A stretch of DNA of 64,000 nt from Candidatus Woesearchaeota archaeon (GCA_038891615.1 JAWADY010000002.1:64994-128993), one strand, 5' to 3'. Shown: positions 3 to 56,959, counted from the stretch's first letter. A program made the numbers and translations. The notes: a model not told the origin generated them from the letters alone.

Positions 3-881
3 ATGTCAAAAAACGTCTTTGCGTTTAAGAAAGCACCGCCAGAATATCCCTACTCCCCATTCCCAAAACCGCCAATATTTCCTTCTGCACCAACATACGG
101 CTATTACGGTGATATAAGTATAGTGACTGAAAAAAGACTTTCTGCGGAGCTGAGCTCATACATAGAATCAAATATCCAAAGCTGCACTGATTGGTCAAGC
201 TTTGCACAGAAAGGGATTGATGTAAAAGTTGGTAAACCATCAGCGGATGTCCTTTTTGGAGACTCTGACACAACAGTCTCGCTTAGGTGGCGAATAGAGG
301 CAAAAAGCGGCCAGGCAGAAGCGGTCATAAACAAATTTGCAGCAAGCATTCCGGTTAGAATGAAGGTTGTACGTAACTATGCTCTCGAGATAGCCTCAAA
401 TGACACCCTTTACTATGACTATGAGCCTAGCAGTGCTCCAGCAGTCCAGGTTTTCAAAAGGGTTGATGGCAAAAGCGACATAATTCAAATCACAGATACG
501 CTTTCAAAAGTTGACACAAAACCGTTTATCTTCAGGTTTGCAAGAAAGAATAGGCCTCCTGTGCTTTTCGATTCTGATATTAAATTGCGATTTAATGAAA
601 TTTTTGCTTGCCCAGGCGATGTTATAAGTTTTGATGGCAAGACATTCAAAATAACTAAACAAAATGGTGACATTCGCTTTTCTTTTGCACCAAATGCAAC
701 AGATTTTGATGAAGATTCTAGTTTATCATTTAATGTTTCTGATAGAGGTGGTGAGCCCTTTCCTTTAAGCACAACTCAGCAAATGGCAAATATTGGTAAA
801 AGAGAACTAAGAATAGAAGTCAGTGATGGTCTTGAAAAAGATTGGTATGATGCAAGCCTGACTTTAAAAACAAAATGTTAA
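3..881 (+). CDS. 5'-truncated secreted/extracellular protein of unknown function; stop overlaps the start of the giant downstream gene (ATGTTAA)
   Basis: Open frame enters from the window edge, 292 aa, no TM in the visible part. The 7-nt overlap with the 875 ATG suggests translational coupling. No recognisable family. Confidence 0.45.
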   Translation: MSKNVFAFKKAPPEYPYSPFPKPPIFPSAPTYGYYGDISIVTEKRLSAELSSYIESNIQSCTDWSSFAQKGIDVKVGKPSADVLFGDSDTTVSLRWRIEAKSGQAEAVINKFAASIPVRMKVVRNYALEIASNDTLYYDYEPSSAPAVQVFKRVDGKSDIIQITDTLSKVDTKPFIFRFARKNRPPVLFDSDIKLRFNEIFACPGDVISFDGKTFKITKQNGDIRFSFAPNATDFDEDSSLSFNVSDRGGEPFPLSTTQQMANIGKRELRIEVSDGLEKDWYDASLTLKTKC

Positions 882-3800
882 GAAAAGAAGTTATTGGAAT
901 CTTTGTAGTGCTGTTCTTCGTAGTAATTGGAATCGCGGTCATTGCACAGGAAGAAAAAACAGGTTGTTGTTGTGATGAAAATGGAACTGCAATGGATTAC
1001 AGTCCTTTCCATACCCAAAATGAGTGCACTGATCCATTCACCATTCTTGTTCCACTTTCTTCAGAAAACATAAGCAAGTATACTCCTGACAACATCTCAA
1101 AAATATGTATAGACGCTTGTGGTGGTGCAGCCCCTAAGCCTTTACCATTGCCACTTGCTCCAAAAATAACTTTTTTTAAAGCAGAACCGTTGATGGGCCA
1201 AAAGAAATTTTTGCTCACCTGGGAGATAAATCAAACACCAAATGTCATCTATATAGACAGGTGCAAAGGAAATGACTGCACTAATTTTGGCAACATTGCA
1301 ACCTTTGCTGGAACCTCAAGGTCTTATGTCGATGATGATGCAAGCCTTGAGTGGCTAACAAATTACACCTACAGGTTGAGGATTGTCAATACAATTACAA
1401 GCCCACCACAAGAATCAAGCATGACAGCATCCTCAAGCCTTGGCGACATTGAGTGCTGGAATCGATTCGACAAAACTCCTTTCTGCATTTCAGAGTACTA
1501 CTATTGGAATGAGCCTATTCAGAGCTATCTCAAGAATTTTGGCTATTTTGGTTTCAGTTTCACTGATAATTTTGCAAGACAGGTGCGGACTGTTTTTGGA
1601 GTAACAAATCTTGACCACATAGGAAAGCTCGACTCAAGATGTCATGTGGTTGGCATAAACAGACTCAGTCAGTCTTCCTCAAGGTGCAAGAGCAACGAGA
1701 CTTGCCTTGTTGTGGATTCAAACACAATCTGCATAACCCCTTCACCTTGCGATACAAGCTTTAATGCAACCTCTGCTTCTTGTGAAAACACCCCTTCAGG
1801 TACTCCAAGCTATTGTTTCTCTGATAAGAGCCAAAGTGTTATTGAGCGCTGCTACAGTTGTGATAAAAGGATGAGCTGCTATGACTATCGTTCAAAAGAG
1901 GCCTGTGAGAGGGATGCATGCGGAATTGGAGATTGTATATGGAAGCCAACTTATGGAGCAATTGGAGTTGGAGTTTGCATCAATCCTTCTCAAAACAACT
2001 GTCTGCTTTGTGACAAGAAAACAGGAGACCTTCTTTCAGGCTTGGATTCAAAAAAATGGCCTAGTCTTTTGGCTTATAATGAGCTTTTTGACGCCTGCTC
2101 ACAGCTAAAGGCAGAAGCTCTTGGCAAATGCCTTGCCGTGACAGACCCTTCAACAGGAAAAACTTCTCCAAAGACTTGCGAACAAGCAACCTGCAGCGAT
2201 TATAAAACTCAGCAAGAATGTAATGCCGACACTTGTGGGTTGGGAATATGCAAATGGTTTGACTCACCCACCTTCCGCGGCTGTGCAAAGGATGCTGACA
2301 CCCCTCCTCAAGCCCCTGCAACAGATAGTGATGGTGATGGTATTCCTGATTGGTGGGAAATCAAGTATGGTTTGAATCCTAACAATCGTGATGATGCTGG
2401 TAGTGATTCTGATGGTGATGGCTTGAGCAATTTGGATGAATGGTTGCGTGGGACCCTTCCAAACAATCCTGATAGTGATGGTGATGGTGTCTCTGATCTT
2501 AATGATAATTGCCCTGGTACTCCTTCAAACACTTTTCAAGTTGATAGCAATGGGTGCCCTCTTCCTGTTAGTGATACCACTGATTCTGATGATGATGGTA
2601 TTCCTGATTGGTGGGAAAGAAAGTATGGTTTGAATCCTAACAATCCTGCTGATGCTGGTAGTGATTCTGATGGTGATGGCTTGAGCAATTTGGATGAATG
2701 GTTGCGTGGGACTCTTCCTAACAATCCTGATAGTGATGGTGATGGTGTTTCTGATCTTAATGATCAACATCCTGGTACTCCTTCAAACACTCAAGTTGAT
2801 AGCAATGGGCGCCCACCTCAAGGCAATGGCAAGCCGGATTGCATTGATCCAAACACAGGTGAAATAGATCCTGCGTGCGAAGCAGACAAGTGGTCACCTG
2901 AAACAGTCATTATCCCTGTGGGTGACAGAGGGGCTGTAAAATACCTATACATACAAATTACTGACCAGTTCAAAAGCACAGGTGAAAAATTAACTATTGC
3001 GCACTCTGGAACTGGAACAAAGGCAGAGTACTTTCCTAAAGGCTACAGCACTTTTCTTTGCGTTGGTAGCCTTTGCTCACCAAATGTTCGTGTGAACGCA
3101 ACTCCCTTGACTGTTGTAAATGGCTTCTTGACAATAAATGGTAAGCCTCTTGGACTGCAGCTTAAGGATGGTTCCAACATCTTAAGATTCTACTCACAAG
3201 ACCCTGCAAATAATAATGAACAAGTTAAGCAGCTAGAGGTGAATGCCTGCACAGGCTGTCAGGGACCTGCTCTCATTACTCCAATTGATATCGAAGGCGC
3301 AAGAATTGTAAATGGTGAGTATTATACAAAGCTAACACAGCCGCAAATAAAGCTATCCTTTGATGCAAAGGCAGAACTTGTTTTAAAGAGGCTTGTTTTT
3401 GGCAATTCTTTTACTGAGCTTAGCTCAAGCCCACAATCCGGCTTCAGCCAAAACTACACATTACTACCTCCTGAGCTAGCAGAAGCAAAGTATGTTCTGC
3501 AAATAAATGCTCGTGGAGAAAATGGAATCTCGAGCTCTAATACGCCTTACAGCTTCAATTTGACGATAGACAAAACCCCGCCACTCCTTTCATTCAATGT
3601 TGAACAAAACAGCATCTTAGAAAACCCAGACCAGTCTTTTGTGCTTAGCTTTAATGAGCCTGTCTTTGTTACTTCCATTTTTTTCGATGAAGAGCATGTT
3701 GCTCAAAATGGTCGCAAGTATGTTTTTACAAGAAATCTAACCTCTGAACTCAAGCAAGTGAATAGCAGCAAATATAACCTAACTGTTAATGGAATTCCTG

Positions 3801-6355
3801 ATGGGCATGTTGCGCTAAGAGTTACAGCAGAGGATTATGCCGGAAATACAATGGCTTCTGTGCTAAACTTTATTATTGACTCAACAGGCCCGGTCATTTC
3901 TCTGGCACAACCACTATTCGGAATTTCTGACAAGACACCATTTGACATTGTCGTTGAAACAGACCAGCCAGCTATCTGCAGATATTCAACAATTCAAAAT
4001 GTTGACACTGCGAGCATAAGCTATGATGCAATGGCAAAGTTCTACATACCTGAAAAACAAACCGCACAGCACATCATACAAGGCTTTGACGAGCTCACAG
4101 GAAAGCCAGAAAACACGCCCTGGAGGTTCTATGTTGTTTGCAAGGATGGCAAGCAACGCCAGTCTAACGAAACCTTCTGGCTGTCCGTTGATTCTGCTCC
4201 TCCAAAAATAACAGCTGCTTATGCAGAACCAAATCCAATCGTTGAGTACACAGACAGTGAGCTGCTAACAACACTGAAAGTCTCAACAGAACGCAGCTCC
4301 TTCTGCAGTTACAGCACAACAACCACGAGCTTTAGCCCTGAAAATGGTTTTGAAGGGACAGGCATAACTCCAAGGCAAGCGCACAATGCTGTGGTTAAAA
4401 TAACCACTTCTCCGACAACTTATAACATCGCTTGCATTTCACCAACCGATTATGGCAAAGCTGCGCCAAGAACAGCAACAGCAACAATAAAAATCACTGT
4501 TGACGTTGCAGCACCACTAACCATTTCCTGCAGCTATTGCCCTTCATTCTGGAATTCTACCACAAAAAACATATACCTGACCACAAACAAGCGCGCGCAA
4601 TGCTTCTGGACACTTGACAAGACAACCACTTCTTTTGGTACAGTTGGATATGAGCACAGCACCACTCTGAAAGTGCCATCTCTTGGCGAGAAAAAAGTGC
4701 TCTTTAGCTGCAATGCAGGCGCCCAAAGTGCAACCCTTGAGTATTCATTTCTTGTAGACAACAGCCCTCCTGTAATGCTCTATGTTAGTGATAACTCAAG
4801 CCTTAAAGAAGATACAGAGCATAGCTATTTCACAGATAGGTTAAGGGCAGCATGGCTCGGGCAGGATAATGAAAGTGGAATAACACGGTATTATTACTCT
4901 TTAATCGAAAAGGCAAACAACGCTGTTGTGATAAATTGTTCACCTGGCTCTCAACAAAACAATTGCCGATTCTCAACAGTACTTGATGGAAATTTCTTTG
5001 ACATTACGCAGGACCATAATGGAAAGTCGCTCAATTTAACAGACGGCTTTAGTTATTTCTTGAAGGTTTGGCCCCTAAATAGGGTTGGTCTTCTTGGAAA
5101 TCCAATGGACTCGGATGGAGTTGTAATAAACAAAAGCAAAAAGCCAGCTCACTGCAGCGATGGAATAACAAATGAAGGCGAATCAGGGCAGGACTGTGGT
5201 GGAGAGTGCGAGCCTTGTCCTGATGGTCAGCCTTGTAGGTCTGATTCGGACTGTCTCTCAAAAACCTGTATAGAAGGTTCGTGCAAGGCTCCGAGCTGTA
5301 CAGATTTAAGAAAGAATGGTAATGAAAGCTCAATCGATTGTGGTGGGAGCTGTCCAACAAAGTGCGAAGCTGGTAAAAGTTGTAACACTGACAGCGATTG
5401 CAAAACAGGACTAAGCTGTATATCTGGTGCATGCGCAGAACCAACAGCTTGCGAGAATGGTATACTTGATGGGCTTGAAACAGACATTGACTGCGGAAGG
5501 GTTTGTCCAACAAAATGCGCAGCTGGAAAGGGCTGTCTTGATAATAAAGATTGCGCTGATGGGCTATATTGTGTTAGTGGTGTTTGTTCTTCAACAACTC
5601 CAACCGCTGATTCTGATGGTGATGGTGTCACTAATGATCTTGACCAGTGCCCAAACACTCCGAAAGGTGAAAAAGTAGATAAAAACGGTTGTTCAGCAAG
5701 CCAGCGTGACACCGATGGAGATGGCATGAATGATGCTTGGGAGATACGCTATGGCTTTGATCCTGAGAATCCTGCTGATGCTTATACAGATGTCGATGCT
5801 GATGGCCTTAGTAATCTTGAGGAATTCAAGTTAGGAACTGATCCAAGAAACCCAGATACTGATGGTGATGGTTGGAGTGATGGGGCTGAGTTCAAGGCAG
5901 GAACAGACCCTCTAGACCCTGCCTCAAAGCCATCCGCCCCTATTGTGAGAGCTTTGCCATGGCTGTTGCTTGTTGCAATCCTTGCCATAGCCGGTTACGC
6001 AGCTTACAAGTACAGGAAGCAAATTGCTGCAATTTTTGTAAGGAAAAAGGTAATTCCTTTGCCAAAGCCGCCTGTGGTGTGGAGACCGCCACCAAGGCCT
6101 GTCCAAAGAGTTGTGCGTGTTCCAACAAGAGCAGAGTTAATCATTGAACAGCTTAGAAAGATTGCCCGAGCTACAAAGGCTGAAGAAGAGGAATACATTC
6201 CTGTAGAAGAGCTTGCCAGAAGGGCAGCTGCGCTAGAGCCAACAGAAGAAGTACTTAAGCATCTAAAGGCAGCAGTAAGAAAAAGCCCTGAGTTTGCAAG
6301 GGCTGCAGCTGCCCAGCCAAAGCTCAGAGCGATGCTCAAGAAAAAATCAAAATGA
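875..6355 (+). CDS. Giant (1826 aa) membrane-anchored surface protein/adhesin with thrombospondin type-3-like Ca-binding repeats (DxDxDG), Cys-rich modules, a C-terminal TM helix and a roughly 130-aa charged cytoplasmic tail
   Basis: N-terminal hydrophobic signal/anchor (IGIFVVLFFVVIGIAVIA). Repeated DSDGDG(I/L/V)xD...WE..YGLNPNN motifs. Four roughly 43-aa 6-Cys modules (CxDGxxNGxExxxDCGGxCxxCxxGxxCxxDxDC...C..GxC). TM ALPWLLLVAILAIAGYAAY near the C-terminus, followed by a Pro-rich then helical K/E-rich tail. Confidence 0.8.
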   Translation: MLRKEVIGIFVVLFFVVIGIAVIAQEEKTGCCCDENGTAMDYSPFHTQNECTDPFTILVPLSSENISKYTPDNISKICIDACGGAAPKPLPLPLAPKITFFKAEPLMGQKKFLLTWEINQTPNVIYIDRCKGNDCTNFGNIATFAGTSRSYVDDDASLEWLTNYTYRLRIVNTITSPPQESSMTASSSLGDIECWNRFDKTPFCISEYYYWNEPIQSYLKNFGYFGFSFTDNFARQVRTVFGVTNLDHIGKLDSRCHVVGINRLSQSSSRCKSNETCLVVDSNTICITPSPCDTSFNATSASCENTPSGTPSYCFSDKSQSVIERCYSCDKRMSCYDYRSKEACERDACGIGDCIWKPTYGAIGVGVCINPSQNNCLLCDKKTGDLLSGLDSKKWPSLLAYNELFDACSQLKAEALGKCLAVTDPSTGKTSPKTCEQATCSDYKTQQECNADTCGLGICKWFDSPTFRGCAKDADTPPQAPATDSDGDGIPDWWEIKYGLNPNNRDDAGSDSDGDGLSNLDEWLRGTLPNNPDSDGDGVSDLNDNCPGTPSNTFQVDSNGCPLPVSDTTDSDDDGIPDWWERKYGLNPNNPADAGSDSDGDGLSNLDEWLRGTLPNNPDSDGDGVSDLNDQHPGTPSNTQVDSNGRPPQGNGKPDCIDPNTGEIDPACEADKWSPETVIIPVGDRGAVKYLYIQITDQFKSTGEKLTIAHSGTGTKAEYFPKGYSTFLCVGSLCSPNVRVNATPLTVVNGFLTINGKPLGLQLKDGSNILRFYSQDPANNNEQVKQLEVNACTGCQGPALITPIDIEGARIVNGEYYTKLTQPQIKLSFDAKAELVLKRLVFGNSFTELSSSPQSGFSQNYTLLPPELAEAKYVLQINARGENGISSSNTPYSFNLTIDKTPPLLSFNVEQNSILENPDQSFVLSFNEPVFVTSIFFDEEHVAQNGRKYVFTRNLTSELKQVNSSKYNLTVNGIPDGHVALRVTAEDYAGNTMASVLNFIIDSTGPVISLAQPLFGISDKTPFDIVVETDQPAICRYSTIQNVDTASISYDAMAKFYIPEKQTAQHIIQGFDELTGKPENTPWRFYVVCKDGKQRQSNETFWLSVDSAPPKITAAYAEPNPIVEYTDSELLTTLKVSTERSSFCSYSTTTTSFSPENGFEGTGITPRQAHNAVVKITTSPTTYNIACISPTDYGKAAPRTATATIKITVDVAAPLTISCSYCPSFWNSTTKNIYLTTNKRAQCFWTLDKTTTSFGTVGYEHSTTLKVPSLGEKKVLFSCNAGAQSATLEYSFLVDNSPPVMLYVSDNSSLKEDTEHSYFTDRLRAAWLGQDNESGITRYYYSLIEKANNAVVINCSPGSQQNNCRFSTVLDGNFFDITQDHNGKSLNLTDGFSYFLKVWPLNRVGLLGNPMDSDGVVINKSKKPAHCSDGITNEGESGQDCGGECEPCPDGQPCRSDSDCLSKTCIEGSCKAPSCTDLRKNGNESSIDCGGSCPTKCEAGKSCNTDSDCKTGLSCISGACAEPTACENGILDGLETDIDCGRVCPTKCAAGKGCLDNKDCADGLYCVSGVCSSTTPTADSDGDGVTNDLDQCPNTPKGEKVDKNGCSASQRDTDGDGMNDAWEIRYGFDPENPADAYTDVDADGLSNLEEFKLGTDPRNPDTDGDGWSDGAEFKAGTDPLDPASKPSAPIVRALPWLLLVAILAIAGYAAYKYRKQIAAIFVRKKVIPLPKPPVVWRPPPRPVQRVVRVPTRAELIIEQLRKIARATKAEEEEYIPVEELARRAAALEPTEEVLKHLKAAVRKSPEFARAAAAQPKLRAMLKKKSK
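2324..2830 (+). repeat. Near-perfect tandem duplication (2 x 258 bp) inside the giant surface-protein gene, encoding two almost identical 86-aa TSP3-like units
   Basis: DNA units starting at about 2324 and about 2582 are nearly identical (gattctgatggtgatggcttgagcaatttggatgaatggttgcgtggga... in both). The protein units differ at only a few residues. Confidence 0.85.
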
Positions 6356-6852
6356 GACTTGGCCAAATAGTTGGGCAAATATTTCTTTTCTTGTTGGCAA
6401 CAATTGTTTTTGTTTTTATAGTTGTTTATGGCTATCGCGCAATAGGCAACCTTGTTGCAAAAGGTGAGCAAGCAGACCTAGTGCGATTCAACAGCGAGCT
6501 CAGTTCCGCAGTTAGTGCTATATCCCTTGACTATGGCAGCGTGCGTTGCCTAGAGCTCAGCCTTCCAAAAAGATATAGAACCTTTTGTTTTGTCGGGCAG
6601 GAGCCTGACATAGGCGCACTTTCCTTGGTCAGCCCATTAATTGCAAGTGCTGTCCAGTCAGGGATTAAGCAAAATGTTTTTTTAATCCCCCCTTCACCGC
6701 TTCAACTATATCTAGAAAAGGCAACGACAAAAGCAGAGGGAGGATTTTTTTGCATAAATACAAGCGGACCAACAAATCGCTTGCTACTCAGGCTTGAAGG
6801 TGGCGCAGGAGGAATTGCAGAGCTACAAAAATGGCAAGGAGCAAGCTGTTAA
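6352..6852 (+). CDS. Pilin-like protein with class III (type IV pilin-type) signal peptide
   Basis: N-terminus MRLG|QIVGQIFLFLLATIVFVFIVVYG: short basic segment, G at -1, Q at +1, then a roughly 20-aa hydrophobic helix. Lies directly downstream of the giant gene. Confidence 0.55.
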   Translation: MRLGQIVGQIFLFLLATIVFVFIVVYGYRAIGNLVAKGEQADLVRFNSELSSAVSAISLDYGSVRCLELSLPKRYRTFCFVGQEPDIGALSLVSPLIASAVQSGIKQNVFLIPPSPLQLYLEKATTKAEGGFFCINTSGPTNRLLLRLEGGAGGIAELQKWQGASC

Positions 6853-7820
6853 TTCCAAAGCACAGAAAAGGCCAGATAGAAGCGCCAGTAAGTTGGATAT
6901 TCATACTTATTGCAGGAGCTGTAATCCTTCTTTTTTTCTTTTCAACAACCATTAAGTTGCGTGACATTGCAAAACAAAAGCTTTCAATAACCCTTTTGTC
7001 AAACTTAGATGCACTCATCTCTAGCTCATCCGTTGCAAAAGGTACAAGCCAGCTGCTGCCGATTTATGACCAGCAACTTGTTTTTGAATGTACACAGGCT
7101 TGTCTTTGCGAGCTTTCAGTCCTTGGCGCAAAAAAGCCATTTAAAGACAGGCTGATTTTTGCTCAGCAAAAGGTTTTTGGAAGAAATGCGCTATTTTGGG
7201 CTCTTGACTGGAAGGAGCCATTCAGGATTGCTAATTTTCTTTACATAACAGACAGCTCAAGCAAATATTGGTTGGTTGGGGATTCGAGCAGCGAACCACT
7301 TAAGACAATAAAGTTCCTCCTTCCTAAGAATCTTAGTGCGGAGTTCGTAGACTCCACCCAAAACATCAAGCCAGGAAATTTCAAGAAAAGCAGGATTGTT
7401 CTTTTTGACAAAGCACTGGATGAAAGCCTTGCAGATAGTTTTCCCAAAGCATCTGAGCTAACATTACTTGTTGTCAACACCCAGAACAAAGAGCTTAAGT
7501 GGTACAAGAGAAAAGGTAGCAAGCTGGAAGTGCTGTCAAATGAAGGGGCGGATAACTACAAAAGCATTCCCCATCTTTTGGGAGCAATTTTTAGTGACGA
7601 GCCGCAGCTTTACGCCTGCCAACAAGCAGCTTCTGAGGACAGGAAAGCGGCCATAAAAGAAATCTATGTTGCACGTGTGCAAAAATTGATGCAAATTGTG
7701 CCAGAAGAACGTGGTTGCAGCGCGCTTTACGAAGAGACGTTCAAAAACATTAACGCTCCTGAGGCGCTTGAGGAGATTAATGAGGAATTGCTAAAAAAGA
7801 GTTGTCCAACAATATACTAA
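6831..7820 (+). CDS. Pilin-like protein with class III signal peptide (329 aa)
   Basis: N-terminus ...KHRKG|QIEAPVSWIFILIAGAVILLFFF. Overlaps the upstream gene by 22 nt. Confidence 0.55.
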   Translation: MARSKLLIPKHRKGQIEAPVSWIFILIAGAVILLFFFSTTIKLRDIAKQKLSITLLSNLDALISSSSVAKGTSQLLPIYDQQLVFECTQACLCELSVLGAKKPFKDRLIFAQQKVFGRNALFWALDWKEPFRIANFLYITDSSSKYWLVGDSSSEPLKTIKFLLPKNLSAEFVDSTQNIKPGNFKKSRIVLFDKALDESLADSFPKASELTLLVVNTQNKELKWYKRKGSKLEVLSNEGADNYKSIPHLLGAIFSDEPQLYACQQAASEDRKAAIKEIYVARVQKLMQIVPEERGCSALYEETFKNINAPEALEEINEELLKKSCPTIY

Positions 7821-7821
7821 A

Positions 7822-8352
7822 ATGGCAAACAATGCATCTCCAAGCAAAAAGGCTCAGATAAAGATGTTTGAGAATATCGCTGTCCTCGTGATATTCTTTT
7901 TTCTTCTGGCTTTTGGTACAAGCTTTTACTTTACACTTCAAAAAAGTTCCCTTCAGCGTGAAATGGAACGCATTGCGCAGCTTGGAAACATTCAGCAGGC
8001 GCTTAGGCTTACATTCTTACCAGAGCTTGACTGCTCATTTGCTGCTGTACAAACTGAAAATTGTTTTGACAGGCTTAAGTTTGATGCTCTTGCAGATCAG
8101 CTTAAACCAGGTAGCCAGCGATGGCTTGAGTACTCTGCAATCCTTGGTTTTACTAGTATAAAACTAAAGACTGTTTATTCCAGCCTCTCTCCCCCGCCTG
8201 AAGAGAAACTTCTGTACGAAAGAAAGCTGAACGCAACTGCAATTCGCACAGAGATTCCTGTCTTGATTTGTGAAAACGGTTGCGACCCGCTAAATCAAAG
8301 CTATTCCTTCGGCATCCTTGAGGTGACAAGCTATGTTAGAAGGGCAACCTGA
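7822..8352 (+). CDS. Pilin-like protein with class III signal peptide (176 aa)
   Basis: N-terminus ...SKKA|QIKMFENIAVLVIFFFLLAFG. Start lies 2 nt after the upstream stop. Confidence 0.55.
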   Translation: MANNASPSKKAQIKMFENIAVLVIFFFLLAFGTSFYFTLQKSSLQREMERIAQLGNIQQALRLTFLPELDCSFAAVQTENCFDRLKFDALADQLKPGSQRWLEYSAILGFTSIKLKTVYSSLSPPPEEKLLYERKLNATAIRTEIPVLICENGCDPLNQSYSFGILEVTSYVRRAT

Positions 8353-8854
8353 TGGCATTGCTGTGTTGAAGGGATTAAAGAGAGCAAAAGGCGGGCAAAT
8401 GGAAATAATTGGTCTAACAATCATCATTCTTCTTGTTATAATTGGGGTGCTTTTTGGAATACAGTTTGTGCTCAAGGCAAAGCCGCCCACAATTGGACGA
8501 GAGTTTAGGGAATCGCAGTACGCAGCCAACTTCCTAAGCACTCTTACAGGTACAACAAGCGCATGTAATGGTTTGAGCATCACACAACTTTTACAGAACT
8601 GCGTGACAAGGACAGGGATTGACTGTCCATCAGGAAAGGGTGCTTGTGAGGAGGTTGAGGCTCTTATAGAAACAATCCTTGATAAAACAATTGGCAAGTC
8701 GGGACAAAACAGAGCATACCAACTTATGGTAAAAGGCAGCAACATTGACATTACTAAGTCTAATCGGGGAGGATGTCCGGGCGAAAAAGAGGTTGCAGAA
8801 CACACACTTCCAACAAGAGCTGGAGTAGTTTCTATACGCCTCGAGTTGTGCTAA
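8333..8854 (+). CDS. Pilin-like protein with class III signal peptide (173 aa)
   Basis: GAGGTGA Shine-Dalgarno 8 nt upstream of the ATG. N-terminus ...KRAKGG|QMEIIGLTIIILLVIIGVLFG. C-terminal part has 4 Cys. Confidence 0.5.
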   Translation: MLEGQPDGIAVLKGLKRAKGGQMEIIGLTIIILLVIIGVLFGIQFVLKAKPPTIGREFRESQYAANFLSTLTGTTSACNGLSITQLLQNCVTRTGIDCPSGKGACEEVEALIETILDKTIGKSGQNRAYQLMVKGSNIDITKSNRGGCPGEKEVAEHTLPTRAGVVSIRLELC

Positions 8855-8856
8855 AA

Positions 8857-10827
8857 CTATTTGCTAAAAGGATTTCTCATTTGCTTTGCTACCCAGACTG
8901 GGCTAAAATCTTCATAATCATTATCAGTAAGCTGCTCGAGCTTATCCTTTTCAATGTTGTAAACAAAGATTTCGCAATCTCTGTCTTTTTGTTTCTGTCC
9001 AAAACGAAACCAAGGGCAAGCAGAAAAGGCAATGCCTTTTGAGTCTTGCGACCAAGCAATGTTGTCCTCATTTACAAAAAAATTGTTTGGAATGCTAACT
9101 TTTTTGATGCTTAGTTTTGGCCAATCCGCTATATTGACAATGGTTACAATACTGCTCCCCTTATACCTTATTGCAAAATGTTTCAAATCTGGAGAGTTAT
9201 ACATTGCTAATGCCTGGTCTGGAAGTTTTGTCACAAATTTTGGCTTGTCCACACCGTTCTTACAAGATTCTTTTCTTTTTTTCTGGCAAGAGGCTAAGTC
9301 ATAAAGGGTGGCTTTCTCGAGTGCTAGAAAGTAAAGAAGGTTTTGGCTTTCACCTTTTGGATGATAAGGACTGGCTGCGAGGCTAAAGAACAAGCCAGGC
9401 TTTGCAAAAGTCAGTGCAGTAACATAATATCCCTTTTTTTCAAAAATCTTAAGTTTGATTGGGCTTTCTGATCCAAAGATTTTATAAGCATATATCTTGC
9501 CCTTCTTCTCATTGTTGGCATAAACGAGCCAGTTAAAATCAAACCACTCAAAGGCTTCCCACTCTGATTTGTCGTCGTACCCTGTTGATAAATTCTTTAT
9601 TTTGTTCTCTTCCGTCTTTAAAAGGGGAGCGAGCCTGATAGTCTTCCAGGACTTTTCTGCAACGCATCCACATTGTGGTGAGATCTTTATTTTGTGATAA
9701 AAGGATAACCCAGAACTTTCAGCAACATCCCCAAGCTTTGGAAAGAAGTAATGTAGTTTGTTGTCTATCACCACACCAACAGTTTCTCCATCGCTGCTTT
9801 TTATTAGGTTTTTGGCTTCCTTTTTTTTAAACACAACCACATTATGCGTTTCCTTTAATGGTGACCGTGGATAAACAAAGTTTATTCCGAAGTTGTCATC
9901 TAATCGTGAAATAAAGTATATTTTCTCATCAGTGACCAATGAAGAAAGCCAGATGAAGAATGAGGCTGTTGTGACAAACGCCGACCCTAAAAACCATTTC
10001 CTGTTTTTGCGCCACCAAAGATACCTGCACGCCTTTTTAGCGCTCCATCTTTTCTTTAGATTTGTTTGAAGAAAGCCAGAAATAAGTTTGCGAAGTGGAG
10101 CTTTTTTAAGTCGTTCATATTCTCCAGAAATTATTTTTTCTCGCAACCTTTCACGCTCAGCATCCTCAAAAGGAAAGCTACCAGTTATAAGCTTGTACAG
10201 TGCAACGCCTGCCGCCCAACTATCACTTTGTTGCGATGGCATAAAGCCTTTTAGTAGTTCTGGCGCACGATAGAGCAAGCTACCATAGCAAGGGCCGTAG
10301 TGTAGCTCCTTGCTGTTCGATAGTCCGAAGTCAACAATTTTTATCTTTCCTTCAGAAAGAATGAGGTTTTCAAGGCTCAGGTCACCATGTGTAACACCTC
10401 TTGAGTGCAAAAAGTCAAGTCCTTTACAAATCTGTTCCGCGCATTCAATGAGTTGCTTTTCATCGAGTTTGCCTGCAACCTCGCTCAGCTTTCTGCCTTC
10501 CACATACTCTTCAACAATAAATGGCAGGCCAGTCTTTTCGTCTATGTTAACAAAGTAGATTTTAGCAATATGTTCATGGCCTTTGCCGCGCTCCTCACGC
10601 AACTTTGTAAGAATTTTTGCCTCGCGCTCAAATGTGCTTTCAATGCTTACATTCCTATAAGCTGGAAATGAGCGCGAATGTTTCAGAATTTTTAGTGCAA
10701 CTGTTATGCCTTGTTGAGTATCATAAGCCTTCCAAACTTCTTTAAAAGCGCCGCCACCAATCTTTTCAATGAGTCTAAACTTACCGTTATTAAAAAAAGC
10801 ATTATCCTTAAATTCTTCTTCAGCCAT
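8857..10827 (-). CDS. Eukaryotic-like Ser/Thr protein kinase fused to a TM helix and a C-terminal PD40/TolB-like beta-propeller domain
   Basis: Kinase subdomains G-x-G-x-x-F-x-V (GGGAFKEVW), VALK, HGDLSLENLIL, DFG, APE. Internal hydrophobic helix (FVTTASFFIWLSSLV). C-terminal WSQDSKGIAFSA-type PD40 repeats. Confidence 0.8.
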   Translation of the reverse strand: MAEEEFKDNAFFNNGKFRLIEKIGGGAFKEVWKAYDTQQGITVALKILKHSRSFPAYRNVSIESTFEREAKILTKLREERGKGHEHIAKIYFVNIDEKTGLPFIVEEYVEGRKLSEVAGKLDEKQLIECAEQICKGLDFLHSRGVTHGDLSLENLILSEGKIKIVDFGLSNSKELHYGPCYGSLLYRAPELLKGFMPSQQSDSWAAGVALYKLITGSFPFEDAERERLREKIISGEYERLKKAPLRKLISGFLQTNLKKRWSAKKACRYLWWRKNRKWFLGSAFVTTASFFIWLSSLVTDEKIYFISRLDDNFGINFVYPRSPLKETHNVVVFKKKEAKNLIKSSDGETVGVVIDNKLHYFFPKLGDVAESSGLSFYHKIKISPQCGCVAEKSWKTIRLAPLLKTEENKIKNLSTGYDDKSEWEAFEWFDFNWLVYANNEKKGKIYAYKIFGSESPIKLKIFEKKGYYVTALTFAKPGLFFSLAASPYHPKGESQNLLYFLALEKATLYDLASCQKKRKESCKNGVDKPKFVTKLPDQALAMYNSPDLKHFAIRYKGSSIVTIVNIADWPKLSIKKVSIPNNFFVNEDNIAWSQDSKGIAFSACPWFRFGQKQKDRDCEIFVYNIEKDKLEQLTDNDYEDFSPVWVAKQMRNPFSK

Positions 10828-10878: not shown

Positions 10879-11763
10879 TTATCTTGTTTTCTGGATAACA
10901 GATGGTAAAGCAAGCGCAGGAAGCTGTATGCTCAAGTCGACTATAGAAGCAAGGTGAATGTTTTTCCAGCCGTAACGACGTATTTCCTCAAAAATTCTCG
11001 AAGCTTCGGTTGCCGTTTCCTGTTTTGCATCGAAGACAAATCTGTAGCAAGCGTCAAAAAGCTTGGCAGCCTTTTCATATTGTTTTACAATCTCCTGTTC
11101 AGGAACCGCGCGCTGCTTGACTATCTCTGCAGCAAGATACTTGCACTCGTCACCAATTCTTTCCACACTCCAGACAATGACTGCCTTACGCATAGCCTCT
11201 AGGTGTTCTGATATGACATTTTTTGCAAGATACCTCATGCAGTAATGTGCAAGCCTATTCACATCAATATCGCGCTGCTCTAGATGTTCAAGAGCAGTGT
11301 AATCCCAATTTCGAATAGCTTCTACCGAATCCTCAAGCATTCCTTTTACAAGAAGAAACAACCTCCGATAAAGTGCTGGAAATTCATCTTTTATCTGACC
11401 AGCAACATCACGCAAAATGCAATAGTTGCTCCTTTGTTCAACAGTCTCAAAACCAATTAGCTCAATGAGGGCTTTTTTGACGCGCTGAGGAGTTTCTGCT
11501 TCGAAGTTTGTGATTTTTATTTCATCATAGCCATCCTCATAAAGCCTGACAATAAGCCTTGGCAAGAGGACTCCTGCCTCAGGCGCACTTATTTCTTTGC
11601 TTTTGAAGACCTTTTGAGTGCTTGTTGGAGAAAGCGAAATAAAACCTGGTTGTTCTGACATTTCAATCTCATCTCCTTTCTTTATTCCATACTTTCTTGC
11701 CCATTTCGCAGGAAGACTTACCACAAGCGTTTGCTTGGAAAGCTGAATGACCTTTCTTCTCAT
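10879..11763 (-). CDS. Archaeal-type PhoU-family regulator with N-terminal AbrB/SpoVT-like domain
   Basis: N-terminus VIQLSKQTLVVSLPAKWARKYGIKKGDEIE (AbrB swapped-hairpin signature). PhoU hallmark ERIGDECKYLAAEI plus a second helical repeat. Confidence 0.7.
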   Translation of the reverse strand: MRRKVIQLSKQTLVVSLPAKWARKYGIKKGDEIEMSEQPGFISLSPTSTQKVFKSKEISAPEAGVLLPRLIVRLYEDGYDEIKITNFEAETPQRVKKALIELIGFETVEQRSNYCILRDVAGQIKDEFPALYRRLFLLVKGMLEDSVEAIRNWDYTALEHLEQRDIDVNRLAHYCMRYLAKNVISEHLEAMRKAVIVWSVERIGDECKYLAAEIVKQRAVPEQEIVKQYEKAAKLFDACYRFVFDAKQETATEASRIFEEIRRYGWKNIHLASIVDLSIQLPALALPSVIQKTR

Positions 11764-11910
11764 AATCCTTTGAAATGGTGCTTTGTATATAAAGTTTTCT
11801 ATAGGTATATAATTAAATTTTTATTATATATTTTAAGATAACTTATATATTTTAAGCATAAAATATATACTTTTGTTAATGCACTCACCTAAAAAAAGGA
11901 GGTGAGAAAG
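11764..11910. promoter_or_regulatory. AT-rich divergent promoter region between the phoU-like and lrp-like genes, with several TATA-like elements and a 13-bp direct repeat tatatattttaag (11825-11837, 11844-11856)
   Basis: Extremely AT-rich 147-bp spacer. TATA-like tatataaag / aaaatatatac. GGAGGTGA Shine-Dalgarno at 11898-11905 ahead of ATG 11911. Confidence 0.45.
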
Positions 11911-12393
11911 ATGTCTGACTTTCAAAAAAAGGATTTGGTAATAATAGCCCATCTCAGGCAGAATGCGCGGATGAAGCTAACAGCAATGTCAAGAAAAACA
12001 GCACTCCCTGTCTCAACAATTTATGACAGGTTACAACTTCATGAAGGAAAGACAATCCTAAAGCATTCGTCTCTCATTGACTTTTCAAGACTTGGCTTTA
12101 GTGCAAGAGTGAATGTTCTCTTCAAACTTGGAAAAACTGATAAACAGGAATTTGTAGCATTCCTATCAAAACATCAGAATGTCAACAGCCTTTACAGGAT
12201 TAATAATGGTTTTGATTTCCTTGCAGAGTGCATTTTTAAGAACATACGAGAACTAGAAGACTTTTTCGAACAACTTGATGCAAGGTTTGACATAAAGCAT
12301 AAAGAGGTTTACCATGTTATTGACGAGCTAAAGCGTGAAGCCTTTTTATCAGACCCTCAATTGATTGAGCTTGCAGGAATTGAAGCAGCCTAA
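11911..12393 (+). CDS. Lrp/AsnC-family transcriptional regulator
   Basis: N-terminal HTH (KKDLVIIAHLRQNARMKLTAMSRKTALPVSTIYDRLQ) followed by a RAM/ACT-like C-terminal domain. About 160 aa, typical size. Shine-Dalgarno GGAGGTGA 5 nt upstream. Confidence 0.75.
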   Translation: MSDFQKKDLVIIAHLRQNARMKLTAMSRKTALPVSTIYDRLQLHEGKTILKHSSLIDFSRLGFSARVNVLFKLGKTDKQEFVAFLSKHQNVNSLYRINNGFDFLAECIFKNIRELEDFFEQLDARFDIKHKEVYHVIDELKREAFLSDPQLIELAGIEAA

Positions 12394-13508: not shown

Positions 13509-14225
13509 ATGAGCCTGCTCATTGTCAGAAGGAAGGGAATAACAGAAACAGGATTAGTGGCAATAATCCTTGTCCTTGCCTCTGGCATTGTTCTTGGAGC
13601 TCTTGTCTATCAGTTTACTGTTAAGGGGAAGCAGGTTGGCTCTATCGAGCTTTGCAGACAGAATGTGCTAACTGCTAGCAAAGTTGTAGCGCTTGGCAAA
13701 GCAGATATTTGGCCAATCACCAACTGCTTTACAGAAGACCTTGGCAAACTTCCAGAAAAAGAAGAAGAAGCCATTACTCTGATTGCCGAGGGTATTAGGA
13801 AGTGCTGGTACATGTGGGGCGAAGGAAAGCTAACTCCATGGAGCTCTACATGGCTATCAAGAAACATCATGTGTCATGTTTGTACGATGTTTGAGCCAAG
13901 CGCAGAAGTGAGTATTGAAAAGCTTCATGGTTGGATGAGGACTCACAACATTCCTGGCAAAGAATTAACCTACTATGACTTTTTGAAAGAAGGCTACATC
14001 CCTTTCATCTATCCAGCACTTGAAGAAGAAGCCAAAGCCAAAAAAGTTGACCTCACAAAAGGAATGAAATGGGCTGTCTTTTATGCCTATGGAACGCGCG
14101 CGGATTGGCTAAGATTTCCCCTCATTGGTGGACTTGTGCTTGAAGAACCAAAACAAGGCGTTGCCTTCCTGCCGACAAATGAACTCGGAGGCATATGTAC
14201 ATATACTACGATAAAACTCAAATGA
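13509..14225 (+). CDS. Pilin-like protein (238 aa) with class III signal peptide and a Cys-containing globular domain
   Basis: MSLLIVRRKG|ITETGLVAIILVLASGIVLGALVY. Shares CW..WGEGKL...CHVC motifs with the next gene, so the two are paralogs. Confidence 0.6.
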   Translation: MSLLIVRRKGITETGLVAIILVLASGIVLGALVYQFTVKGKQVGSIELCRQNVLTASKVVALGKADIWPITNCFTEDLGKLPEKEEEAITLIAEGIRKCWYMWGEGKLTPWSSTWLSRNIMCHVCTMFEPSAEVSIEKLHGWMRTHNIPGKELTYYDFLKEGYIPFIYPALEEEAKAKKVDLTKGMKWAVFYAYGTRADWLRFPLIGGLVLEEPKQGVAFLPTNELGGICTYTTIKLK

Positions 14226-15145
14226 AAAGGGCGCAAGTAACAACACAGACACTCTTGGTAGTGCTCGTGCTTTTACTCGTAGCAGCTGTCATCTTTATTT
14301 CTTTTCAGACAAGACTCTTTGGCTTAGCAGAAGCCAAAAGTGCAAAGGATGTTTGCAAAACTTCTGTCTATGCCAATGCGCTGCTTGGAAGAAGTGTTGG
14401 AATCTTTTCTTCGGATATAAAATGTCCAACTCAGTATCTTCAGATAGACAATAGTGATGTTGCACATGCAAAGTTTGAGATTGCAAAAGCTCTGTCAGAT
14501 TGTTGGGAACAATTTGGAGAAGGCAGGCTTGAGCTTTTTTCTGGAGAAGGTGTTTTTTGTTCCGTATGTCATTTGATAACTTTTAAGCACAAAGAAAAAG
14601 CAATAAGCGGGCTTTTAGACTATCTTGCAACTAACAAAAAACCCCTTACTGACAAAAGCTATCTTGATTATCTAACAAGCTATCACACTTCAGGAAGCGA
14701 GGTTCTTAAGGCATATGCAGCTGAAAAGCTCCCGCCTGACATTCTTGACCCATCGCGAGGCAACACCTATGCAACAATCTTCTACTATGTCAAGGGTAAA
14801 GACCATGTGAAGGATGTTATTGAAAGAGCCCAAGCAGCAGCACCTGGCATTGGGCTTGAAGCACTTGGTATCGGATTGATAAAGGCAGGCAGTGCAACAG
14901 CTGGCTTGATTTCAGCAACCGGCATTGGTGCGCCTCTAGGTGTAGTTGTTGCAAAGGTCTCAACAATTGTCGGCGGAGTTTTGATTGTTGGCGGAGCAGG
15001 CTATGCCCTCCTCGCTGGTTGGTTCGGCGGAGTCCCTGTAGAATTCCTCTCACAAGTACGCCTCGAGCCTTACAACGAGCAAACGCTTAAAAACCTCGGA
15101 TGCCAAATCCTGCCTGCAGCTGAAAAAGCAGAGGTTGGAAGGTGA
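14222..15145 (+). CDS. Pilin-like protein (about 307 aa), paralog of 13509, with a C-terminal Gly/Ala-rich hydrophobic segment
   Basis: Start ATG overlaps the upstream stop (aATGA). MKRA|QVTTQTLLVVLVLLLVAAVIFISF. Motifs CWEQFGEGRL / CSVCHL match the upstream paralog. Confidence 0.6.
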   Translation: MKRAQVTTQTLLVVLVLLLVAAVIFISFQTRLFGLAEAKSAKDVCKTSVYANALLGRSVGIFSSDIKCPTQYLQIDNSDVAHAKFEIAKALSDCWEQFGEGRLELFSGEGVFCSVCHLITFKHKEKAISGLLDYLATNKKPLTDKSYLDYLTSYHTSGSEVLKAYAAEKLPPDILDPSRGNTYATIFYYVKGKDHVKDVIERAQAAAPGIGLEALGIGLIKAGSATAGLISATGIGAPLGVVVAKVSTIVGGVLIVGGAGYALLAGWFGGVPVEFLSQVRLEPYNEQTLKNLGCQILPAAEKAEVGR

Positions 15146-15279
15146 TGAAAAAAGGCATATCCCGCGAGGCATTTGTTTACATACTCTTGGCACTTATTGC
15201 AATCCTCATTGGAGTAATCTTGATAATTTTTTGGGGAGGCGGGGCAGAAAAGGTCCTTAAGTCTCTTGGTTTGGGATAG
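15145..15279 (+). CDS. Mini pilin-like protein (44 aa), essentially only a class III signal peptide plus TM helix
   Basis: Absent from the ORF track (<60 aa). TGATG overlap with the upstream stop. MKKG|ISREAFVYILLALIAILIGVILIIFWGGG. Confidence 0.4.
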   Translation: MKKGISREAFVYILLALIAILIGVILIIFWGGGAEKVLKSLGLG

Positions 15280-15284
15280 CTCAA

Positions 15285-15641
15285 ATGGACAAAAAAGCTG
15301 TTGCAATAGAAACAATAGTCATCCTTCTCCTTGCACTTGTTGCTCTCCTTTTCTTTACAGTCCTTGGAGGAAAGCAGCTTCAATTGGGCAAGAAAATAAG
15401 CTTTTTCATGCCGGGCTGCCCAAAGGGTGTTTTAATAACCACAGAATGTCCATGTGATGGCCAAAAGATAAGTTCAGGTTATTGCTGTGATTTTGGACCA
15501 AGCCAAAAGCCTTGCTTTTGCGTAGAGCGAAATGTTAATAAGTGCGAGGATTACAAAAAGCAAGAGGATTGTGTAAGCAATCCTTGCCAAGTTCAAACTG
15601 CTTGCACCTTTGAACAAGGTGTTTGCAAAAGGGCTGGTTAA
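15285..15641 (+). CDS. Pilin-like protein (118 aa) with an extremely Cys-rich C-terminal domain
   Basis: MDKKA|VAIETIVILLLALVALLFFTVLGG. 16 Cys in the last 80 aa (CPKG...CPCDG...YCCDFG...CFCVERN...). Confidence 0.6.
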   Translation: MDKKAVAIETIVILLLALVALLFFTVLGGKQLQLGKKISFFMPGCPKGVLITTECPCDGQKISSGYCCDFGPSQKPCFCVERNVNKCEDYKKQEDCVSNPCQVQTACTFEQGVCKRAG

Positions 15642-15645
15642 ATAA

Positions 15646-16071
15646 ATGGCAAAAAAAGGGGTAAGTGGAATACAGGTCGTCATAGCACTTTTGATTGGCA
15701 TCATAGTGCTCTATGTTGTTGTGGCTTTTATGCAAGCACAGTTCAAGAAGGCTGGAAAGAGTATCGAGGAAATAACTCCTTCCACAATCAGCTTTGCGCT
15801 GCAAGGCTGCAGGCTCCAAGCCGCACGAGGTTTTTCTGATGCAGATAAGGATGGATATCCCGACTTTTGTGATGTCTGCGAAGGCGGTGATGACGGAAAG
15901 CACAGCGATGCTGACTGGGTTCCAGATGATTGTGATGCGCATGAAAAAACAAAAGGGCTTCCTGCAAAGGAATGTGGTTGTGAAAAGCCAGAAATGGATT
16001 CTGAAGGCAGGCTGATAAAGAGCTGTGGGAGGCTTCTTTCAATCGAGCCATTTAAGTGCGCGAAAAAATGA
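15646..16071 (+). CDS. Pilin-like protein (141 aa) with Asp/Cys-rich (Ca-binding-like) C-terminal domain
   Basis: MAKKG|VSGIQVVIALLIGIIVLYVVVAF. C-terminus: DADKDGYPDFCDVCEGGDDGKHSDADWVPDDCD. Confidence 0.6.
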   Translation: MAKKGVSGIQVVIALLIGIIVLYVVVAFMQAQFKKAGKSIEEITPSTISFALQGCRLQAARGFSDADKDGYPDFCDVCEGGDDGKHSDADWVPDDCDAHEKTKGLPAKECGCEKPEMDSEGRLIKSCGRLLSIEPFKCAKK

Positions 16072-16088
16072 ATTTGGTAAAATGAAAA

Positions 16089-16949
16089 ATGAGCAAAAGG
16101 AAAGGCCAGGAAGAAGTTGGAAGGATGCTTTGGGAACTTGTTGCGCTGATACTGGCAGTAACTGTTATCATTGGAGGGATATTGTTTTTTGGAAGGGCAT
16201 TTGGATTTATTGGTGAGAGCAAAGAGGAACAGGACACAATCTCAAGCTTTTACAGCCTTGCAACAAAACTAAACGAACTGGCGCTGCTTTCAGAGTCATT
16301 CGTTCATGACAGGCTACCACTTTTTATTGGGGAAGGATTTGTAATTGTTGGCTTTGACAAAGCTGGAGATATTTCTGTCAATGGTTGCAGCGATGAAACA
16401 CATCTTGGAGTTCCAGCTACTGACCTCATCCCAAAGCCAGAGTTCTGTGGCGAGTTTGCTTGCATATGCCTCTATTCTGGCATTAGCGAAGAAGTCGGCG
16501 AGAAGCAGCCAATTTCTTGTGCCAAAATTTTCGCTGACAGATTGATTGGCTTGAGTAGTGCGTATCTTGAAAAAAACTATCCCTCTTTTGAGTCTTTTTG
16601 GAAAAACGCAATGGGCTCTCGTAGGGATAAGCCAGAACTACAAAGGTTCATGGTAACAGGGACAGAGCCTTTTAGCACTCTTCTCGAAAAAGACTATCCT
16701 CTTTTCCCAAGCTTTGAAAGCTACCCCTATACCTATTTTGTTCTTCATGGTGAGTGTGAAAACTGGTGGTTTGATGCCAACTTTGGCACACAAAGCCTCT
16801 ATCTTGAAAAAGTGAGGATAAAAGACAGGAACTATTTATTTATCACCGCAGACATCGAGGACTTTGTAAACAAAAGGGTTGCTGCAATAAAGGATTGGCT
16901 AGAGAAGCAAAAGAGTCAAGAGAAAGCCGAGGGAGGGCTGGTTGGTTGA
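16089..16949 (+). CDS. Pilin-like protein (286 aa)
   Basis: MSKRKG|QEEVGRMLWELVALILAVTVIIGGILFFG. Basic N-terminus, Q at +1, a single N-terminal hydrophobic helix. Confidence 0.55.
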   Translation: MSKRKGQEEVGRMLWELVALILAVTVIIGGILFFGRAFGFIGESKEEQDTISSFYSLATKLNELALLSESFVHDRLPLFIGEGFVIVGFDKAGDISVNGCSDETHLGVPATDLIPKPEFCGEFACICLYSGISEEVGEKQPISCAKIFADRLIGLSSAYLEKNYPSFESFWKNAMGSRRDKPELQRFMVTGTEPFSTLLEKDYPLFPSFESYPYTYFVLHGECENWWFDANFGTQSLYLEKVRIKDRNYLFITADIEDFVNKRVAAIKDWLEKQKSQEKAEGGLVG

Positions 16950-18900: not shown

Positions 18901-18901
18901 A

Positions 18902-40454: not shown

Positions 40455-40482
40455 TAGTCCACCTCTTTTTGCAATTTAGCCC

Positions 40483-51385: not shown

Positions 51386-51431
51386 TTTTCCTTTAAATTA
51401 AAGAACTCTTTTAAAGTTTTCCAGTCGTTCG

Positions 51432-56875: not shown

Positions 56876-56959
56876 GCCTCCGTAGCTCAGTAGTGGAGCG
56901 ACTGCCTTGTATCTGTGCAAGAAAGCAGTAGGTCAGGGGTGCGAATCCCCTCGGAGGCT
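56876..56959 (+). tRNA. tRNA-Thr (anticodon UGU) with a 12-nt intron after position 37
   Basis: Acceptor GCCTCCG/CGGAGGC, D-arm GCTC-AGTAGTG-GAGC, anticodon stem ACTGC/GCAGT with loop CTTGTA[TCTGTGCAAGAA]A, T-arm AGGGG-TGCGAAT-CCCCT. 84 nt against 72 without the intron. Confidence 0.55.

Follow-up and report, generated by a model that had tools for sequence, protein, structure and literature searches.

Within a 64,000-nucleotide stretch of a Candidatus Woesearchaeota archaeon genome (GCA_038891615.1, JAWADY010000002.1:64994-128993; hereafter the window), we analysed a gene for a giant surface protein located at 875..6355 (+). Judged by sequence comparison, this gene is one member of a conserved, unnamed family that encodes giant type-I membrane proteins in Woesearchaeota (Nanoarchaeota in GTDB, DPANN archaea), and it sits in a tight, conserved operon with pilin-like genes. 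We read its product as the membrane-anchored adhesin or stalk of a pilin-assisted cell-surface attachment apparatus, a reading to which we assign a probability of roughly 0.5. What makes the finding interesting is above all the family with its conserved operon; the giant gene of the window is by itself an ordinary family member whose sole individual peculiarity is a recent tandem duplication that added six thrombospondin type 3 (TSP3) units.

The open reading frame (ORF), the longest in that part of the window, translates into 1826 amino acids (aa) plus a stop, as originally predicted, and the call is backed by full-length homologues. A full-length search returned eleven proteins with E-values from 1e-196 to 1e-111 and about 30% identity over 45-65% of the query; two of the eleven are named Candidatus Woesearchaeota, and the remaining matches share TSP3 only. 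These eleven and two more distant proteins, which miss individual elements, follow the same order of signal, GCC(C) motif, fibronectin type III (FN3) domain, cysteine-rich head, immunoglobulin (Ig)-like rod, eight-cysteine modules, TSP3 units, transmembrane (TM) helix and tail, usually with two or three eight-cysteine modules and with a Lys/Glu-rich tail of 109-344 aa. The modal counts in full-length family members are three cysteine modules and three TSP3 units. The N-terminal part of about 480 aa contains 33 invariant columns over 14 sequences and 39 over 11 sequences, and the same layout recurs in more than 100 clusters at 50% identity. When aa 1-483 were searched with HMMER against 1.84 billion representatives, 525 proteins matched at E <= 1e-3, of which 209 reached E <= 1e-10 and 87 reached E <= 1e-30. 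Among the 150 matches listed, many cover the complete N-terminus in the alignment and have lengths of about 1500-2700 aa; the matches in multiple stretches are bacterial proteins with tandem FN3 domains of the same subtype, without the core or tail motif. An identical giant protein was found in the NCBI assembly GCA_038896475.1. No second, paralogous copy of the gene occurs in the window, and none of the related loci retrieved is a nucleotide-level relative.

The distribution of the family was further examined with the core motif of the head, C[YF]xCxxxMxCYDY[KR][ST]xxxC (aa 326-344 here), which was back-translated to a degenerate DNA pattern and scanned against a species-representative genome collection. 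This yielded 97 matches in 97 different assemblies, one per assembly, with titles that read Woesearchaeota, Nanoarchaeota, Nanoarchaeia, a bare 'archaeon' or TPA (third-party) placeholder names; every title naming a DPANN lineage gives Woesearchaeota or Nanoarchaeota. About a third of the 97 are third-party assemblies titled 'uncultured Methanosarcinales archaeon' (many of the loci L010-L097), a label that looks like a placeholder or misassignment because those assemblies carry the same Woesearchaeota-type operon. The original prediction had called the protein unusual for an archaeon, which proved overstated: the architecture is standard in at least 97 species-representative genomes, and the TSP3 genes of other archaea and the SPEARE proteins, both discussed below, are precedents. 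Each design principle has a precedent, be it in adhesins built of calcium-binding modules, in giant DPANN proteins with a TM anchor or in surface systems with pilin-like components; no curated model exists for the head, the cysteine module, the tail or the operon partners. The literature on surface, cysteine-rich, thrombospondin, pilin or adhesion proteins of DPANN archaea and Woesearchaeota yielded no description of the giant-protein family.

The protein begins with a Sec-type signal peptide (875..949 (+), aa 1-25; hydrophobic stretch aa 5-25), for which cleavage is predicted, probably after A-V-I-A. Just C-terminal to it stands a G-C-C-C motif (962..973 (+), aa 30-33), whose cysteines C31-C32-C33 match the CCC motif previously placed right behind the signal anchor. 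C33 is invariant across the family, and G30, C31 and C32 are nearly so (51 of the 57 full-length members). A lipobox at the conserved G|C (aa 30-31) was considered and rejected, both on the -3 and -2 residues, which are unlike those of a lipobox, and on the occurrence in one subfamily of a second GCCC deep within the mature protein. An FN3 domain of a subtype with the signature 'RC.G..C..F' follows (1157..1444 (+), aa 95-190) and precedes the family-defining head (1445..2323 (+), aa 191-483), which holds 26 of the 78 cysteines that a residue-level scan counted in the whole protein. The centre is occupied by a rod of about seven Ig-like beta-sandwich domains (2840..5119 (+), aa 656-1415). The domain count is derived from '[IV]D..xPP' boundary motifs, which recur about 100 aa apart in these 760 aa (aa 898, 1001, 1105, 1209 and 1294), and Pfam gave a weak match to the Ig-like family Big_13.

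TSP3 repeats lie on both sides of the rod. Of the ten DxDxDG units that a regular-expression search found, six lie at aa 484-650 and the other four at aa 1579-1680. The Pfam model TSP3_bac (PF18884) matched seven stretches (E = 8e-21; 74 bits, cut-off 25). The multiple DxDxDGxxD units of the original prediction are therefore real, and its 'IPDWWE.KYGLNPNN' linker is present twice. The eukaryotic model TSP_3 (PF02412) stayed just under threshold (24.1 bits vs 25), and the NCBIfam matches were partial, driven by TSP3 and far under the family cut-offs. In the AlphaFold model described below, the loops of these putative Ca2+-binding units superpose on the calcium-binding Bap B domain. The four membrane-proximal units (5609..5929 (+), aa 1579-1685) are conserved across the family. 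The six N-terminal ones belong to a lineage-specific insertion (2321..2836 (+)) that a repeat search of the sequence revealed as a tandem duplication of a 258-nucleotide cassette. Its copies, at 2321-2578 and 2579-2836, are 92% identical at the nucleotide level and encode three TSP3 units each (aa 484-655); the second has lost its cysteine pair. Tandem Repeats Finder reported nothing within the giant gene, and it was the general repeat search from which the duplication emerged. The insertion sits between head and rod, where relatives have a short 'KNADG...DC...CEKDYFPP' linker, and this duplication accounts for the six surplus units: most relatives have three TSP3 units vs ten here, and only 4 of 57 members have at least ten. 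TSP3 genes have also been noted in other archaea and were read there as adhesion genes (PMC6461757).

The same DxDxDGxxDxxE loops occur in bacterial TSP3 proteins (PF18884), such as Myxococcus CglD and MtsD and OmpA-type anchors with TSP3 linkers, and partial matches to MtsD, CglD and PA1041 were obtained. However, the NCBIfam matches are restricted to TSP3 stretches and lie far below the family cut-offs (60 bits vs 800 for MtsD), and thus what is common to these proteins and ours is the repeat rather than the family. Eukaryotic thrombospondin and COMP share TSP3 units, including a cysteine-pair variant (DQCPNTP...NGC), which here match TSP_3 weakly.

Behind the rod lie three tandem modules (5153..5587 (+); aa 1427-1470, 1475-1520 and 1526-1571), each with eight cysteines in the spacing C-13-C-3-C-2/3-C-5-C-5-C-4/5-C-4-C and with the consensus CxDGxxNGxETDVDCGGxCxxCxxGxxCxxxxDCxSxxCxxxxC. 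Four modules with six cysteines each had been proposed; the residue scan instead gives three with eight, a number that the consensus offered with that proposal itself contains. From the first to the last cysteine, a module spans 44-46 aa, and the pitch of 51 aa counts the linker to the next module. The suggested resemblance to low-density lipoprotein receptor class A (LDL-A) and epidermal growth factor (EGF) folds is not backed by any Pfam, NCBIfam or PDB match. For LDL-A (PF00057), there is no match even at E <= 10, the cysteines number eight and not six, and the acidic-cage signature is missing. For EGF, Pfam gave no match and a PDB profile search with a single module found nothing related. 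PDB sequence searches with the triple module, the whole protein and the single-module profile likewise returned nothing significant, and the modules have no significant Pfam or NCBIfam match and no curated family. The sub-threshold signals, namely EB (E = 0.0045), Dickkopf_N and LEAP2 as well as Foldseek matches to Dkk4 and to inhibitor-cystine-knot (knottin-like) peptides (E >= 0.2), are all confined to the C-terminal half of the module, GxxCxxDxDCxSxxCxxGxC, and membership in LDL-A or EGF is therefore unsupported. LDL-A and EGF proteins do share small disulfide-rich modules and type-I topology with the giant protein.

A profile of the triple module retrieved 680 proteins at E <= 1e-3, most of them metagenomic and made up of short tandem arrays, and the cysteine spacing is nearly fixed over the 321 modules extracted. 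The named proteins with the module come from Polyangia/Myxococcota, some of them fused to plastocyanin or F5/8-type-C domains. Judging from these matches, the module is a widespread, uncurated extracellular repeat. The 'DVDCGG' proteins of Myxococcota (Polyangia) and of metagenomes have the same consensus and spacing, and the best of them align over the whole triple module. They are short (up to 280 aa) and consist nearly entirely of the repeat, whereas the three modules here form a spacer in a giant protein, a position that suggests a rigid-spacer role. Two relatives carry large cysteine-rich insertions before the eight-cysteine modules, one (P0007, 216 cysteines) with about 20 'CD..NKKWC' units and the other (P0009) with 'CGDGxxxxGExCDG' units, which marks the stalk as a hotspot of module gain.

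The only C-terminal hydrophobic helix has its core at 5951..6007 (+) (aa 1693-1711) and leads into a cytoplasmic tail at 6008..6352 (+) (aa 1712-1826). According to the positive-inside rule, basic residues flanking a TM helix mark its cytoplasmic side, and a basic stretch (KYRKQ...RKK) stands directly behind this helix, which gives the protein type-I topology. The domain order and type-I anchor of the original prediction, with a signal, an ectodomain, one TM helix and a tail, thus hold. Its tail length of 130 aa had to be corrected to about 115. An AlphaFold2 model covering aa 1415-1826 has a mean predicted local distance difference test score (pLDDT) of 82.8. In this model, the cysteine modules form three compact mini-domains, mostly at pLDDT 85-95, the four TSP3 units reach about 97, a continuous helix surrounds the TM core (aa 1689-1721), and the tail consists of a disordered Pro-rich part and four helices at pLDDT 70-80. 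The NCBIfam scan gave no PGF-CTERM match, no PGF motif is present and 115 residues trail the TM helix, in agreement with the earlier view that a PGF-CTERM/archaeosortase signal is absent.

The tail is helical and rich in Lys, Glu, Arg and Pro, with no Cys, Asp, Asn or Gly. After the basic juxtamembrane stretch come a Pro-rich linker at aa 1728-1743 with the segment PLPKPPVVWRPPPRPV (aa 1729-1743), a helix, ELIIEQLRKIARA, at aa 1754-1766, the acidic-aromatic element EEEEYIPVEEL at aa 1770-1780 and VLKHLKAAVRK at aa 1793-1803. The expected succession of a TM helix, a Pro-rich part and a helical Lys/Glu-rich part is thus borne out by the sequence and by AlphaFold2. A C-terminal TM helix with a charged tail is present in 57 of the 58 full-length members, the tails being 64-344 aa long (median 151) and about 43% charged. 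In the tails of the 58 full-length members scanned, a helical motif, phi-x-x-[LIM]-[KR]-x-[ILVFM]-[STAKR]-[charged/polar], was counted 36 times vs 2.5 ± 1.6 times in composition-matched shuffles (n = 200, maximum 8), an enrichment of about 14-fold. The 93,000 ectodomain residues yielded a single occurrence. Relatives have, for instance, DVFAKLKKISK, and the window protein has IIEQLRKIA. A second element, acidic-[WYF]-[ILM]-[PS]-[LVF], reads EEEYIPVEE here and DKEWISLEK or DRDWIPLKE in relatives; about half of the members have it, and the same is true of the Pro-rich juxtamembrane linker. These motifs bear the hallmarks of short linear interaction motifs, which in principle supports a binding role. 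The proposed link of the tail to intracellular partners is accordingly plausible with regard to the conserved, enriched motifs.

The Pro-rich linker and conserved short motifs of the tail would also suit a signalling receptor, whose ectodomain senses a ligand or contact and whose tail signals to effectors such as the eukaryotic-type Ser/Thr kinase encoded next to the operon. This Pkinase gene (8857-10827 (-), 656 aa, E = 6e-43) converges with the operon end. However, the gene calls of two fully annotated related loci include no kinase at the equivalent position, and the tail holds three Ser/Thr only and no known signalling domain. We therefore regard a receptor as highly improbable.

Upstream of the giant gene lies the 3' part of a pilin-like gene (3..881 (+)), with 292 codons in the window and about 395 aa in the source contig, whose orthologues have the signal K-S|Q-[VI]-T-[ML]-L-M-I-V-G-L. 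Downstream are four more pilin-like genes: 6352..6852 (+), 166 aa, with the signal [KR]-[GAS]|Q-I-[IY]-G-Q-[VI]-F; 6831..7820 (+), 329 aa, with [KR]-[GA]|[FVI]-E-x-Q-F-[HN]-W-[IL]-F; 7822..8352 (+), 176 aa, with [KR]-[GAS]|Q-[IV]-[KQ]-M-F-E-T and a faint N-terminal BasB match; and 8333..8854 (+), up to 173 aa, with [KR]-[GAS]|Q-M-E-I-x-G-L, the last gene of the operon, which probably starts further downstream than 8333. The giant gene begins at 875, before the preceding gene has reached its stop at 881, and its own stop overlaps the following start (ATGA, 6352); the next three junctions overlap or leave one base between the genes. The orthologues of all five small proteins have a short basic leader ending in [KR]-[GAS], then Q (or F/V), frequently a Glu a few residues further on, and a hydrophobic helix of about 20 aa. 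In archaea, a leader and helix of this kind make up the class III (type IV prepilin) signal. By tblastn, the order of a cysteine-rich protein of about 945 aa, a protein of about 400 aa, the giant protein and proteins of about 166, 329, 176 and 173 aa is collinear and co-oriented in dozens of 8-kb loci. The two fully annotated related loci have a secreted cysteine-rich protein of about 945 aa, one of about 400 aa, the giant protein and then proteins of about 160, 335, 160-170 and 155-166 aa; in the related locus L002, the protein of about 945 aa is split into two genes, for 583 and 368 aa. The operon neighbours of the giant gene match no Pfam or NCBIfam family. In the related locus L001 (18772-19672), three tandem small pilins (KKGQSISINTIIIAA...) end in GCCCVQKP, VCCCVS and ICCCTT. 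This triple-cysteine element, the same as in the G-C-C-C motif of the giant protein, could be a sign that components bind metal between them or are cross-linked by disulfides.

Further genes with possible links to pili lie elsewhere in the window. A second cluster of six consecutive ORFs with prepilin-like leaders extends over 13509-19870 (+), the leaders being RRKG|ITETGLVAIIL, KRA|QVTTQTLLVV, KRKG|QEEVGRMLWELVAL, GKRA|VVHPVALTIAEL, GRKG|VVGELLVAFL and NKRA|TIFFEPLILLGL; the four of these ORFs that were scanned have no Pfam match. A T2SSE/PilB-type ATPase of 765 aa (PF00437, E = 1.5e-12) is encoded at 40483-42780 (-) and adjoined by a 729-aa ORF without a family match (38265-42780 (-) for the pair). 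The two may serve as assembly motor and platform for the pilin-like proteins.

The arrangement of a large non-pilin gene with four or five pilin-like genes resembles the minor-pilin/PilY1 operons of bacterial type IV pili, and the calcium-binding motifs of the giant protein as well as the PilB-type ATPase in the window would also fit a PilY1-like adhesin that, once cut from its anchor by proteolysis, sits at the tip of a type-IV-like filament whose assembly the minor-pilin-like neighbours prime. Against this stand the lack of a match to the PilY1/PilC domain (PF05567, the C-terminal beta-propeller) and the absence of a visible conserved cleavage motif above the TM helix, and the conserved TM helix and cytoplasmic tail argue for permanent anchoring, so that we find this explanation quite improbable. 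The Sulfolobus bindosome (Bas) likewise combines a large non-pilin surface protein with proteins bearing prepilin signals, and its pilin-like proteins set up a complex at the cell surface and not a long pilus. A comparable organisation of a surface complex by the pilin-like proteins of the window is possible, in line with the faint BasB match. Nevertheless, no homology to PilY1, minor pilins or Bas proteins rises above threshold, and the giant protein, unlike PilY1, is TM-anchored with a cytoplasmic tail.

Under the attachment reading, disulfides and Ca2+ would stiffen the stalk and hold the head tens of nanometres off the membrane. The pilin-like proteins would be processed by prepilin peptidase and form a short pseudopilus, or a complex like that of minor pilins, which stands next to the stalk or surrounds it, and the tail motifs could dock a cytoplasmic partner or the inner membrane face, thereby anchoring or regulating the structure. 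For a DPANN cell that depends on a host, the surface of another cell would be the likely target. Pilus-like structures have been proposed as mediators of DPANN-host contact (PMC6642349; PMC9938205).

Several points weigh against this reading. No fold match was obtained for the cysteine-rich head. Curated pilin hidden Markov models gave at best BasB (E = 0.032) and UpsA (E = 0.042) on the five pilin-like proteins, far below cut-off. The giant protein itself has a Sec-type rather than a class III signal and, given its C-terminal TM helix, cannot sit on a pilus tip as PilY1 does. Adhesion, calcium binding, disulfides, signal cleavage and complex formation are what we infer for every member. The tail has no Pfam domain match, and a search for stand-alone homologues of it found none; as this search seemingly returns proteins of query-like length, the null excludes short stand-alone homologues only. 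It is possible that the tail is a purely passive spacer or stop-transfer segment. Finally, a role as a component of the envelope or surface layer (S-layer) would suit equally well a conserved Ig-rich protein that is membrane-anchored and apparently single-copy.

This last point corresponds to an explanation in which the giant protein is the main cell-envelope protein (S-layer or stalk), a structural lattice or spacer held by its C-terminal TM helix as envelope proteins of other archaea are, and its pilin-like neighbours function separately. The single core-motif match in each of the 97 genomes, the C-terminal membrane anchor, the long Ig-like array and the calcium-binding repeats are all consistent with it. 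However, Pfam and NCBIfam gave no S-layer family match. N-glycosylation sequons are not enriched (21 observed vs 18 ± 3.9 expected), although enrichment is not a defining feature of S-layer proteins. A conserved tail with specific motifs is unexpected in a lattice protein, and the tight, conserved operon with pilin-like genes argues for joint function. On balance, we consider a main envelope protein unlikely.

Woesearchaeota are among the most widespread DPANN archaea; to our knowledge, none has been cultured and their mode of host contact is not known. The operon is a concrete candidate for their attachment machinery, in which adhesion-type and calcium-binding modules are tied to pilin-like proteins, with one match per genome in at least 97 genomes at species level. 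Four uncurated sequence families that merit modelling emerge from it as well (the N-terminal head, the eight-cysteine module, the tail motifs and the five pilin-like proteins), and it offers possible targets for cryo-electron tomography labelling, metaproteomics and antibody- or lectin-type cell enrichment. A bolder and, in our view, doubtful extension is that the seven-gene operon encodes an unrecognised, lineage-wide host-contact organelle, in which a TM-anchored giant adhesin is combined with a five-component pseudopilus and the tail motifs couple outside contact to a cytoplasmic partner. If true, prokaryotes would have a counterpart to the outside-in linkage of the integrin or cadherin type.

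Among the closest precedents are, with the same topology, the SPEARE proteins of Nanohaloarchaeota, which are giant, mostly extracytoplasmic DPANN proteins with a TM helix near the C-terminus and a cytoplasmic C-terminus, and for which host interaction has been proposed (PMC6642349). They measure 3,000-8,500 aa and contain laminin-G, serine-protease and toxin-like domains together with a conserved cytoplasmic domain resembling type III restriction enzymes (PMC6642349). The C-terminal TM helix, the cytoplasmic C-terminus and adhesion-type domains are common to both. In contrast, the window protein has a tail of about 115 aa without a domain and an ectodomain of FN3, head, Ig rod, eight-cysteine modules and TSP3 units; there is no sequence relationship, and no Pfam match to SPEARE-type domains was found on its tail or ectodomain.

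The remaining genes of the window are archaeal, including RadA, RPA, RFC, GatE and TruD. Beyond the operon, a MazE/PhoU-domain protein and an AsnC/Lrp regulator are encoded at 10879-12393, and the same pair is present in the related locus L002, so that this arrangement is a case of conserved local synteny. Two adjacent class II Asp/Asn/Lys-type tRNA synthetase paralogues of 436 and 435 aa lie at 50075-52739 (-). A tRNA of 84 nucleotides at 56876-56959 (+), which Rfam reports with 57.7 bits and ARAGORN misses, overlaps the start of an ORF at 56915 and may contain an archaeal intron.

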